The notes below the pieces were generated by a model that did not search any database, had not been told where the DNA came from, and saw only the letters and a list, made by a program, of their open reading frames with translations. Below, one piece after another: positions 42,260 to 46,946 of a stretch of DNA of 64,000 nucleotides (positions are counted from its first letter, which is position 1; each line of letters starts with the position of its first letter). The translations under genes were made by a program, and so were the position numbers. The stretch lies in NCBI RefSeq assembly GCF_055900595.2, contig NZ_CM148325.1; one strand, given 5' to 3'.

Positions 42260-44236
42260 ATGTCTGACGACATGTCTATGGGTTTGCCTTCGTCAGCGGG
42301 CGAACACGGTGTACTACGCTCCATGCAGGAGGTTGCAATGAGCTCCCAGGAAGCCAGCAAGATGCTGCGTACTTACAATATTGCCTGGTGGGGCAATAAC
42401 TACTATGACGTTAACGAGCTGGGCCACATCAGCGTGTGCCCGGACCCGGACGTCCCGGAAGCTCGCGTCGATCTCGCGCAGTTAGTGAAAACTCGCGAAG
42501 CACAGGGTCAGCGTCTGCCTGCACTGTTCTGTTTCCCACAGATCCTGCAGCACCGTTTGCGTTCCATTAACGCCGCGTTCAAACGAGCGCGGGAATCCTA
42601 CGGCTATAACGGCGATTACTTCCTCGTTTATCCGATCAAAGTTAACCAGCACCGCCGCGTGATTGAGTCCCTGATTCATTCGGGCGAACCGCTGGGCCTG
42701 GAAGCCGGTTCCAAAGCCGAGTTGATGGCGGTGCTGGCACATGCTGGCATGACCCGTAGCGTCATCGTCTGCAACGGTTATAAGGACCGCGAATATATCC
42801 GCCTGGCATTAATTGGCGAGAAGATGGGCCACAAGGTCTATCTGGTCATTGAGAAGATGTCAGAAATTGCCATTGTGCTGGATGAAGCAGAACGTCTGAA
42901 TGTCGTTCCTCGTCTGGGCGTGCGTGCACGTCTGGCTTCGCAGGGCTCGGGTAAATGGCAGTCCTCCGGCGGGGAAAAATCGAAGTTTGGCCTGGCGGCG
43001 ACTCAAGTACTGCAACTGGTTGAAACGCTGCGTGAAGCCGGGCGTCTCGACAGCCTGCAACTGCTGCACTTCCACCTCGGTTCGCAGATGGCGAATATTC
43101 GCGATATCGCGACAGGCGTTCGTGAATCCGCGCGTTTCTATGTGGAACTGCACAAGCTGGGCGTCAATATTCAGTGCTTCGACGTCGGCGGCGGTCTGGG
43201 CGTGGACTATGAAGGCACCCGTTCTCAGTCTGACTGCTCCGTAAACTACGGCCTCAATGAATACGCCAACAACATCATCTGGGCGATTGGTGATGCGTGT
43301 GAAGAAAATGGTCTGCCACATCCGACGGTAATCACCGAATCGGGTCGTGCGGTGACTGCGCATCACACCGTGCTGGTGTCGAATATCATCGGCGTGGAAC
43401 GTAACGAATACACGGTGCCGACCGCGCCTGCAGAAGATGCACCGCGCGCCCTGCAAAGCATGTGGGAAACCTGGCAGGAAATGCACGAACCGGGAACTCG
43501 CCGTTCTCTGCGTGAATGGTTACACGACAGCCAGATGGATCTGCACGACATTCATATCGGCTACTCTTCCGGCACCTTTAGCCTGCAAGAACGCGCATGG
43601 GCTGAGCAGCTTTATTTGAGCATGTGCCATGAAGTGCAAAAGCAGCTGGATCCGCAAAACCGTGCTCATCGTCCGATTATCGACGAGCTGCAGGAACGTA
43701 TGGCGGACAAAATGTACGTCAACTTCTCGCTGTTCCAGTCGATGCCGGATGCGTGGGGGATCGACCAGTTGTTCCCGGTTCTGCCGCTGGAAGGGCTGGA
43801 TCAAGTGCCGGAACGCCGCGCTGTGCTGCTGGATATTACCTGTGACTCAGACGGTGCTATCGACCACTATATTGATGGTGACGGTATTGCCACGACAATG
43901 CCTATGCCGGAGTACGATCCGGAGAATCCGCCGATGCTCGGTTTCTTTATGGTCGGCGCATATCAGGAGATCCTCGGCAACATGCACAACCTGTTCGGTG
44001 ATACCGAAGCGGTTGACGTGTTCGTCTTCCCTGATGGTAGCGTAGAGGTAGAACTGTCTGACGAAGGCGATACCGTGGCGGACATGCTGCAATATGTGCA
44101 GCTCGATCCGAAAACGCTGTTAACTCAGTTCCGCGATCAGGTGAAGAAAACCGATCTTGATGCTGAACTGCAACAACAGTTCCTGGAAGAGTTCGAGGCA
44201 GGTTTGTACGGTTATACCTATCTTGAAGATGAATAA
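42260..44236 (+). CDS. speA: Biosynthetic arginine decarboxylase
   Basis: Start set at [45 protein letters not shown] (658 aa) matching E. coli SpeA. Confidence 0.95.
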
Positions 44237-44382
44237 TTAAGATTATTCTGCTGGCGGGGCGATTTATTTACGTAAATCGGCCCGCTTTCTTTTTATATAT
44301 TCTTAAAAATAATTTAGCTGCTTTTCTGGTGATGCTGCCAACTTACTGATTTAGTGTATGATGGTGTTTTTGAGGTGCTCCA

Positions 44383-44658
44383 GTGGCTTCTGTTTCTATC
44401 AGCTGTCCCTCCTGTTCAGCTACTGACGGGGTGGTGCGTAACGGCAAAAGCACCGCCGGACATCAGCGCTATCTCTGCTCTCACTGCCGTAAAACATGGC
44501 AACTGCAGTTCACTTACACCGCTTCTCAACCCGGTACGCACCAGAAAATCATTGATATGGCCATGAATGGCGTTGGATGCCGGGCAACCGCCCGCATTAT
44601 GGGCGTTGGCCTCAACACGATTTTCCGCCATTTAAAAAACTCAGGCCGCAGTCGGTAA
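44383..44658 (+). CDS. insA: IS1 InsA (transposition inhibitor / N-terminal part of InsAB-prime transposase)
   Basis: 91-aa [46 protein letters not shown]… identical in character to IS1 InsA. Confidence 0.9.
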
Positions 44659-45080
44659 CCTCGCGCATACAGCCGGGCAGTGACGTCATCGTCTGCGCGG
44701 AAATGGACGAACAGTGGGGATACGTCGGGGCTAAATCGCGCCAGCGCTGGCTGTTTTACGCGTATGACAGGCTCCGGAAGACGGTTGTTGCGCACGTATT
44801 CGGTGAACGCACTATGGCGACGCTGGGGCGTCTTATGAGCCTGCTGTCACCCTTTGACGTGGTGATATGGATGACGGATGGCTGGCCGCTGTATGAATCC
44901 CGCCTGAAGGGAAAGCTGCACGTAATCAGCAAGCGATATACGCAGCGAATTGAGCGGCATAACCTGAATCTGAGGCAGCACCTGGCACGGCTGGGACGGA
45001 AGTCGCTGTCGTTCTCAAAATCGGTGGAGCTGCATGACAAAGTCATCGGGCATTATCTGAACATAAAACACTATCAATAA
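44577..45080 (+). CDS. insB: IS1 InsB (C-terminal transposase part, expressed by -1 frameshift fusion with InsA)
   Basis: 167-aa [67 protein letters not shown]… matching IS1 InsB; overlaps insA in the -1 frame. Confidence 0.85.
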
Positions 45081-45158
45081 GTTGGAGTCATTACCTGCTT
45101 TTCTTATTAAATAATCTCCCTACAATCGCTGCATTAATTAAATGCAGAGGGAACGGTT

Positions 45159-45890
45159 ATGAAAAAATGGAAAGTACGTAGCGCGTTGGTGGCATTAATC
45201 GTGCTGCTGGCTGGTTGTTCCAGTAATGCGCAGTATAATAGCAGTGCATCAGGCAATGTCGGCACCGCCTGGGGTGGGGATGTGCACTCAACGGTTCAGG
45301 GCGTATCTGCTGAACGAGCCTGGCGCGATCCGGCAGAGATGATCGTTATTAGTTATTCGACTAATGTTCCTTCCGGCTACGACCGCGTTTATAGCATTCG
45401 TATTAACGAACTGGAATATGCTATTCGCGATGGTAATTTTAATTCTCTACCTATTACGCGGGTTTATGATTCATCCAATAATGAACCACGCTATATTGTC
45501 CATGCCAGAGTCGGAATGAATTATCAATTATATGTCCGTAATTACAGTCGTAACACCAACTACGAGATCGTTGCTACGGTTGATGGCCTGGATGTGCTGA
45601 ACGGCAAGCAAGGTTCGCTGAATAACAACGGTTATATTGTGAATGCCGGAGATTCGTTAGCGATTAAAGGATTCCGCAAAGATAAACATACCGAAGCGGC
45701 TTTTCAGTTCGCCAACGTTGCTGATTCCTACGCAGCCAATTCGGCGCAAGGCGATGTGCGTAATACCGGTGTAATCGGCTTTGCCGCCTTTGAATTACAA
45801 GGCCCGGCGAAAAACGCGCTGCCGCCGTGCTCTGGACAAGCCTTTCCGGCAGATAACAATGGCTATGCGCCGCCACCGTGTCGGAAATAG
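45159..45890 (+). CDS. Lipoprotein of unknown function (signal peptide with lipobox LLAGC)
   Basis: 243-aa ORF MKKWKVRSALVALIVLLAGCSSNAQ…; Asn/Tyr-rich mature region; sits between speA and speB. No family recalled. Confidence 0.65.
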   Translation: MKKWKVRSALVALIVLLAGCSSNAQYNSSASGNVGTAWGGDVHSTVQGVSAERAWRDPAEMIVISYSTNVPSGYDRVYSIRINELEYAIRDGNFNSLPITRVYDSSNNEPRYIVHARVGMNYQLYVRNYSRNTNYEIVATVDGLDVLNGKQGSLNNNGYIVNAGDSLAIKGFRKDKHTEAAFQFANVADSYAANSAQGDVRNTGVIGFAAFELQGPAKNALPPCSGQAFPADNNGYAPPPCRK

Positions 45891-45957
45891 CAACCTCGCT
45901 TGATGCCTCGCCCATTTAAGGCGATAATTAGCACAAACTTGTGTTTCACAAATCCAA

Positions 45958-45997
45958 CCCTTCCTCGTCGGGCCTAACGACGCGGAAGGGTTTTTTT
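45958..45997 (+). terminator. Rho-independent terminator downstream of the lipoprotein gene
   Basis: CCCTTCCTCGTCG-GGCCTAA-CGACGCGGAAGGG followed by TTTTTTT; 13-bp stem with one mismatch. Confidence 0.55.
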
Positions 45998-46025
45998 ATA
46001 TCGACTTTGTAATAGGAGTCCATCC

Positions 46026-46946
46026 ATGAGCACCTTAGGTCATCAATACGATAACTCACTGGTTTCCAACGCCTTTGGTTTTTTACGCCTGCCGATGAAC
46101 TTCCAGCCATATGACAGCGATGCTGACTGGGTGATTACTGGCGTGCCGTTCGATATGGCCACTTCTGGTCGTGCGGGTGGTCGCCACGGTCCGGCAGCGA
46201 TCCGTCAGGTTTCGACGAATCTGGCCTGGGAACACAATCGCTTCCCGTGGAATTTCGACATGCGTGAGCGCCTGAACGTCGTGGACTGCGGCGATCTGGT
46301 ATATGCCTTCGGAGATGCCCGTGAGATGAGCGAGAAGCTGCAGGCGCACGCCGAGAAGCTGCTGGCTGCCGGTAAGCGTATGCTCTCCTTCGGTGGTGAC
46401 CACTTTGTTACGCTGCCGCTGCTGCGCGCTCATGCGAAGCATTTCGGCAAAATGGCGTTGGTACACTTTGATGCCCACACCGATACCTACGCTAACGGTT
46501 GTGAATTTGACCACGGCACCATGTTCTATACCGCGCCGAAAGAAGGTCTGATCGACCCGAATCATTCTGTGCAGATTGGTATTCGTACCGAGTTTGATAA
46601 AGACAACGGCTTTACCGTGCTGGACGCCTGCCAGGTGAACGATCGCAGCGTGGATGACATTATCGCCCAGGTGAAACAGATTGTGGGTGATATGCCGGTT
46701 TACCTGACCTTTGATATCGACTGCCTGGATCCTGCTTTTGCACCAGGCACCGGTACGCCGGTAATTGGCGGCCTGACCTCCGATCGCGCCATTAAACTGG
46801 TACGCGGCTTGAAAGATCTCAACATCGTTGGGATGGACGTAGTGGAGGTGGCTCCGGCATACGATCAGTCGGAAATCACCGCTCTGGCTGCGGCGACGCT
46901 GGCGCTGGAGATGCTGTATATCCAGGCGGCGAAAAAGGGCGAGTAA
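46026..46946 (+). CDS. speB: Agmatinase (agmatine ureohydrolase)
   Basis: 306-aa ORF with arginase-fold motifs ([22 protein letters not shown]) matching E. coli SpeB. Confidence 0.95.

Follow-up and report, generated by a model that had tools for sequence, protein, structure and literature searches.

The window, by which we mean the whole stretch of 64,000 nucleotides that was analysed, holds between speA and speB a gene for a 243-aa lipoprotein in addition to a complete IS1 element, as an earlier note on this DNA had described. The product begins with MKKWKVRSALVALIVLLAGC and ends with ...GYAPPPCRK, in agreement with the C-terminal PPCRK tail reported previously, and its description as rich in Asn and Tyr also holds (Asn 9.9%, Tyr 5.8%). 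The features of the locus are as follows, where the long haplotype is the form of the speA-speB spacer that carries the lipoprotein gene and the short haplotype the form that does not.

44253-44295, plus strand: intrinsic terminator of speA, with the stem GGCGGGGCGATTTA...TAAATCGGCCCGC followed by a TTTCTTTTT run, in the long haplotype only.
44328-45095, plus strand: IS1 of 768 bp with insA and insB, a complete and independent insertion.
45121-45126, plus strand: putative -10 hexamer TACAAT of the lipoprotein gene promoter, with C at -13, proposed from a conserved motif.
45129-45147, plus strand: perfect palindrome CTGCAT-TAATTAA-ATGCAG in the 5' UTR of the lipoprotein gene.
45147-45153, plus strand: Shine-Dalgarno sequence GAGGGAA of the lipoprotein gene, directly after the palindrome.
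45159-45890, plus strand: lipoprotein gene, 243 aa, between speA and speB.
45159-45218, plus strand: signal peptide with lipobox L-A-G-C, Cys20 being mature residue 1, as read from the sequence.
45255-45800, plus strand: all-beta globular domain, residues ~33-214, which holds most of the invariant residues of the family.
45801-45887, plus strand: flexible C-terminal tail with a conserved F-P-x-x-x-x-x-Y-A-P-P-P motif and an R-K end.
45900-45928, plus strand: promoter-like site of speB from a consensus scan, -35 TTGATG, 17-nt spacer, -10 GATAAT.
45958-45997, plus strand: hairpin CCCTTCC-T-CGTCG-GGCCTAA-CGACG-C-GGAAGGG followed by T7, from folding and conservation.

The IS1 is flanked by a 9-bp target duplication, TGCTTTTCT, at 44319-44327 and 45096-45104, and ends 63 bp upstream of the ATG of the lipoprotein gene, just 5' of the core promoter and next to the expected -35 position. 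It displaces the upstream AT-rich DNA and leaves the core promoter and open-reading frame intact, and it may alter expression of the gene. The same IS1 junction occurs in only ~3 of 5426 complete E. coli genomes (U1, 28Eco12 and CUVET20-PYO4), and in SK1144, which is identical to the window over the compared segments of speA, the lipoprotein gene and speB, the site is uninterrupted. Other E. coli genomes carry IS1 at different positions of the speA-speB locus, as independent insertions, and in LY180 an IS1 divides the lipoprotein open-reading frame into two annotated pseudogene fragments.

Upstream of the IS1, the terminator of speA folds at -22.4 kcal/mol (z = -4.4), and an equivalent hairpin is kept 3' of speA in other genera and is missing in K-12. 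A strict consensus scan reported no promoter for the lipoprotein gene, the putative -10 hexamer being drawn instead from the TACNNT that is conserved at this position in the upstream regions of Escherichia, Salmonella, Citrobacter and Klebsiella. In Salmonella a different hairpin (CCCCCT...AGGGGG) takes the place of the 5' UTR palindrome, which could act as a 5' stabiliser or as an operator. On the other side of the gene, the promoter-like site of speB is conserved across genera and in K-12 as CTTGAAG...GGCGATAAT in an alignment of nine spacers, and it is followed by a 94-nt leader which contains the hairpin at 45958-45997 and folds at -31.9 kcal/mol (z = -4.7), speB itself starting 3' of the hairpin at 46026. 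The lipoprotein gene had been credited with a strong terminator of its own; the strength stands, the ownership does not, as the hairpin lies 3' of the speB promoter and occurs in identical form before speB in K-12. With its T-run it is conserved over six genera (nine spacers including K-12), the outer stem showing two compensatory changes and the inner stem and loop being almost invariant, with one varying loop position. The surrounding sequence varies while the hairpin stays almost constant. Phytobacter and Kosakonia possess a different speB leader, and in Citrobacter gillenii a ~140-bp insertion that resembles an ERIC/IRU-type repeat separates the speB promoter from the hairpin. A scan of 44100-46200 against Rfam returned no family for either hairpin, its sole hit being a sub-threshold P31 match on the speA terminator.

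Taken from this layout, the hairpin at 45958-45997 is predicted to terminate transcription of the lipoprotein gene while lying inside the speB leader, and that leader has the look of an attenuator, or of a leader that regulates speB. Expression of speB is induced by agmatine; we know of no mechanism for this induction. With the speA terminator on one side and the speB promoter and hairpin on the other, the lipoprotein gene reads as a separate transcription unit, lodged between the end of one polyamine gene and the start of the next.

We searched the 921-bp segment 45105-46025 against the 5426 complete E. coli genomes. A segment bearing the gene (≥80% coverage, 95-100% identity) was present at the locus in 3550 of them (65%), always on the chromosome, where the product was annotated as 'hypothetical protein', 'lipoprotein' or 'membrane protein', and in the remainder the match was limited to the last 78 bp of the query, i.e. 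the hairpin and speB leader. The gene is thus already annotated in thousands of genomes and is an ordinary genomic feature. The reciprocal search with the K-12 junction recovered an intact 137-bp speA-speB spacer in 1867 of 5426 genomes (34%), at 98.5-100% identity among the matches listed. In the K-12 derivative J53, speA is followed by speB across this 137-bp spacer with no gene inside, which confirms the gene order given for K-12 in the earlier note, and K-12 and B derivatives lack the lipoprotein gene. The order speA, lipoprotein gene, speB was found in O157:H7, where the DNA segment at the same locus is 98.6% identical, and in SK1144, which is 100% identical over the 921-bp query and in which the product is WP_000758911.1; U1 shares both this accession and the IS1 arrangement of the window.

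Alignment of the short and long haplotypes gave a net difference of 875 bp. Absent from the short K-12 allele are the speA terminator, the AT-rich and promoter region 5' of the lipoprotein gene and the entire open-reading frame. The ~60 bp that contain the speB promoter (45891-45950 in the window) are only ~65% identical between the two haplotypes in E. coli, with small hairpins retained in both versions, whilst the speA and speB flanks diverge by 1.5-3%, which is no more than two long-haplotype strains differ from each other. We looked in speA and speB beside the indel for raised divergence, a sign of imported DNA, and found none. Divergence of ~35% over ~60 bp against 1.5-3% in the flanks implies that a simple recent deletion is no adequate explanation of the short allele; this allele could date far back, or its source could be another lineage that had already lost the gene, from which it was then imported, and its near-invariance suggests a single origin. 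As one-third of E. coli genomes are without the gene and the open-reading frame is split by IS1 in LY180, the gene is dispensable, at least in culture.

A genomic scan with one genome per species found a relative of the gene in 276 species. The order speA, lipoprotein gene, speB recurs in E. whittamii and two further Escherichia species, three Citrobacter, Kluyvera, Klebsiella (including Klebsiella spallanzanii), Phytobacter, Kosakonia and an Enterobacter, and on a truncated contig of E. albertii the gene immediately precedes speB. In Salmonella it comes straight after speA, and no speB lay within the flank examined. In its place, the next genes encode a regulator of the GntR family and proteins of the dehydrogenase family (Mannitol_dh, ADH_N and Ldh_2 domains), which implies that the speA-speB spacer took in other DNA in this genus. 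Homologues with 53-76% identity are present in Salmonella, Klebsiella, Citrobacter, Kluyvera, Raoultella, Intestinirhabdus and Entomohabitans, and the identity of orthologues falls with taxonomic distance, from 95-96% within Escherichia to 58-76% in other genera. Comparison of the gene with its counterparts in O157 and in E. whittamii gives a dN/dS of ~0.06, and comparison with that of Salmonella 0.065 (range 0.06-0.07), so that the gene is under strong purifying selection. Because dN/dS is 0.06, a spurious open-reading frame at 45159-45890 could be ruled out.

The earlier note had suggested a strain-specific islet inside a housekeeping operon, a suggestion that does not survive the presence of the gene in 3550 of 5426 E. 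coli genomes and at the same position in many genera. It had also named presence in K-12 and most E. coli as the finding that would overturn the idea; K-12 is without the gene, whilst most E. coli carry it. Its distribution is neither restricted nor sporadic, covering 65% of E. coli and being syntenic in at least eight genera, and we detected no integrase, mobility genes, repeats, insertion scars or target duplication belonging to it at the locus. The combination of synteny across genera and dN/dS of ~0.06 argues that the gene was inherited vertically and maintained by selection, and that the short spacer is derived. We therefore regard the lipoprotein gene as an ancestral chromosomal gene of the Enterobacteriaceae and not as an islet, its presence most likely being the older state, a reading to which we give a probability of roughly three in four; the short K-12 spacer is, judged from these comparisons, most likely the derived state. 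That the gene was instead acquired horizontally, entering the speA-speB spacer in some lineages of E. coli, is most improbable and already largely refuted, since its absence from K-12, B and 34% of genomes, its GC content below that of the flanking genes and a second, non-syntenic copy in one Citrobacter, which indicates that it is able to move, have to be set against the constant position that it keeps in at least eight genera and in several species of Escherichia, the lack of an integrase, repeats or target duplication of its own, and a divergence among orthologues that rises with taxonomic distance. In base composition the gene has a GC content of 48.6% and a GC3 of 46%, against a GC content of 55% and a GC3 of 63-64% in speA and speB, with a mean GC of 49.4% in the window.

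The non-syntenic copy, in Citrobacter sp. 18056, is 64% identical and lies away from speA-speB, with genes of DUF4026 and DUF2314 as neighbours. Its gene order and open-reading frame lengths recur on a contig labelled Chryseobacterium sp. 18061, which suggests contamination or mislabelling; a contig labelled 'Mycobacterium sp. KBS0706', with the gene order of Inquilinus limosus, likewise suggests contamination or mislabelling.

The encoded protein carries a lipoprotein signal peptide, beginning with MKKWKVRSALVALIVLL, with a basic n-region and a hydrophobic h-region. The lipobox [LVI][ASTVI][GAS]C is present as LLAG-C20, Cys20 is invariant across 38 homologues, and a lipobox-like motif occurs in 245 of 282 family members. 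The residue at +2 is Ser, and Asp at +2 is found in none of the 38 aligned homologues. Under the enterobacterial Lol rule, a lipoprotein without Asp at +2 goes to the outer membrane, and the +2 residue thus predicts that this protein is sorted to the outer membrane. An AlphaFold model built from 125 sequences (pLDDT 90, pTM 0.82) gives one all-beta domain at precursor residues ~33-214, in which the invariant residues of the family include W38, R53, Y66, Y122, N128, S130, E136, D142, Y159, R173 and Y191. The last ~30 residues are of low confidence in the model yet hold a conserved motif. In Enterobacterales, Cys222 and Cys241 bracket this FP..YAPPP motif and are likely to form a disulfide loop, which would fit formation outside the cytoplasm.

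An HMM search of 1.84 billion representative proteins returned 4298 family representatives at E ≤ 1e-3 and 3325 at E ≤ 1e-10, and together with a word-based search and the genome scan places the family across alpha-, beta- and gamma-proteobacteria, with named members in Providencia, Proteus, Gilliamella, Neisseria, Kingella and Pseudomonas aeruginosa PA7, as well as in Variovorax, Ralstonia, Burkholderia, Paracoccus and Inquilinus. Among 282 full-length members, the tail motif, in the general form F-P-x(2-14)-[YF]-A-x-[PA]-P, lies ≤8 residues from the C-terminus in 227, and 36% have K and 25% R at the very end, others having Y, P, N or Q; most Enterobacteriaceae show a CRK end and Variovorax an RYRK end. 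Some distant, GC-rich members are circularly permuted, with an LGTxWGE...R segment placed after the core domain, directly before the FP..YAPPP tail. The earlier statement that the protein belongs to no nameable family is borne out, Pfam and NCBIfam giving no match beyond the signal-peptide region. Scans with Pfam, NCBIfam and PADLOC of the protein, 38 homologues and 10 distant members gave only weak noise in that region, and sequence-profile searches of the PDB with two alignments produced no match to the family. A literature search by topic and by guessed locus tags found no experiment or publication on the protein. STM3085, the putative Salmonella tag of the gene, appears once in the literature, as an off-target in an unrelated list. 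The family is thus large and strongly conserved, and we found for it no Pfam model, solved structural relative or publication.

We propose, with low confidence and from sequence features, that the product may be anchored in the outer membrane and act in the periplasm as a binding or scaffold protein, with no relation to polyamine synthesis. The protein would be exported by Sec and lipidated at Cys20 by Lgt, LspA and Lnt, after which Lol, given Ser at +2, would sort it to the outer membrane. There it would present a ~185-residue all-beta domain and a flexible, probably disulfide-looped FP..YAPPP tail, with which it could bind a conserved cell-envelope ligand or partner protein. Its role might be structural, scaffolding or sensing in the envelope, and would be dispensable under many conditions. 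The invariant cluster of polar and aromatic residues and the terminal motif hint weakly at such a ligand or partner, and a binding or scaffold role was proposed because these residues and this motif coincide with purifying selection and dispensability.

An alternative is that the protein is a functional partner of SpeA and SpeB which, for instance, binds or senses envelope agmatine, putrescine or arginine; this would account for the retention of its gene in the operon. Across the Enterobacteriaceae the gene is stably linked to speA and speB, and SpeA has been described as associated with the envelope, an association which would favour such a role. However, a predicted terminator stands between speA and the gene, on whose downstream side the speB promoter is found, K-12 makes putrescine through the speA/speB pathway without the gene, and the linkage breaks down in Morganellaceae, Orbaceae, Neisseriaceae, Comamonadaceae and alpha-proteobacteria, i.e. 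it is not kept wherever the family occurs. In Providencia the homologue lies between metJ and an OmpX-like gene with rpmE, in Comamonadaceae it lies inside the his operon between hisD and hisC, in Gilliamella it adjoins recO, and elsewhere outside the Enterobacteriaceae its contexts are varied; a conserved partner gene was sought in the contexts of ~80 species and none was found. Searches of Pfam, NCBIfam and the PDB likewise revealed no homologue among the enzymes, transporters or binding proteins of polyamines, and the lack of similarity to polyamine-binding or polyamine-metabolising families further weakens this alternative, which we consider unlikely. As the contexts outside the Enterobacteriaceae are varied and hold no common partner, we take the tie to the polyamine genes to be an accident of position, specific to this lineage.

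The same contexts bear on a second alternative, in which the protein is a periplasmic inhibitor or orphan immunity protein that neutralises incoming toxins or lytic enzymes directed at the envelope, for instance type VI effectors or lysozymes. A small lipoprotein outside the cytoplasm, whose gene some members of a species have and others lack, would suit this role, and in Variovorax and Xenophilus the homologue is followed by a small Rap1a-like gene whose product matches Pfam PF18602, a type VI immunity family, at 27.5 bits against a cut-off of 27.7. This neighbour is nevertheless confined to the ~24 loci of those two genera, no effector gene lies nearby in any of the ~80 contexts, PADLOC gave no hit for the protein, and with ~40% identity across classes, many invariant residues and a dN/dS of 0.06 the protein is far more conserved than immunity proteins usually are, so that we see little chance of this alternative being correct.

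A further reading would make the protein the E. coli representative of a large, unrecognised family of envelope lipoproteins, proteobacterial wherever the organism is named, with a new all-beta fold, in which the conserved FP..YAPPP motif at the C-terminus docks to a core component of the envelope such as peptidoglycan or, by its terminal Lys where the host is an enterobacterium or one of the Comamonadaceae, is joined to it covalently. We hold this to be decidedly unlikely; if true, the protein would connect the outer membrane with the cell wall in a way that has so far been overlooked, and one beyond the reach of K-12-based genetics, because K-12 does not have the gene.

Whatever the role of the protein, the locus shows that the laboratory strain K-12 misses genes which most E. 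coli carry, and the natural split between genomes with and without the gene (3550 vs 1867 complete genomes) provides a ready comparison set for a phenotype search.

Set beside known systems, the gene is the same as that behind RefSeq WP_000758911.1 and WP_000758914.1, from which nothing in it differs, and its Salmonella orthologue is annotated as 'outer membrane lipoprotein'. With the generic outer-membrane lipoproteins of Gram-negative bacteria, the substrates of Lgt, LspA, Lnt and Lol, the protein shares the signal peptide, the LAG-C and the absence of Asp at +2, whereas its mature domain is without a match among the described lipoprotein families. MATH/TRAF-like and ToxA-like beta-sandwiches (SPOP, the TRAF domain of USP7, Fusarium Avr2/SIX8 and Ptr ToxA) recur as its best natural structural matches and cover 80-105 residues of the core sandwich, with no significant structural or sequence similarity to a MATH/TRAF-like domain. 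Braun's lipoprotein, which is joined to peptidoglycan through its terminal Y-R-K, suggests a last alternative, that L,D-transpeptidases cross-link the R-K end of the tail to peptidoglycan. The CRK and RYRK ends in most Enterobacteriaceae and in Variovorax would be compatible with such a tether, as would a tail for which disorder and a length sufficient for contact with the cell wall are predicted; against it, Lys is terminal in only 36% of the sampled members, it is FP..YAPPP and not the last residue that is conserved, and an all-beta protein is unlike the coiled coil of Lpp, which leaves this alternative very unlikely. The protein thus resembles Lpp and OprI in being an outer-membrane lipoprotein, as predicted, with an Arg-Lys C-terminus, and differs from Lpp in being an all-beta protein and not a helical trimer, in being four times larger, and in belonging to a family in which the terminal Lys is not conserved.
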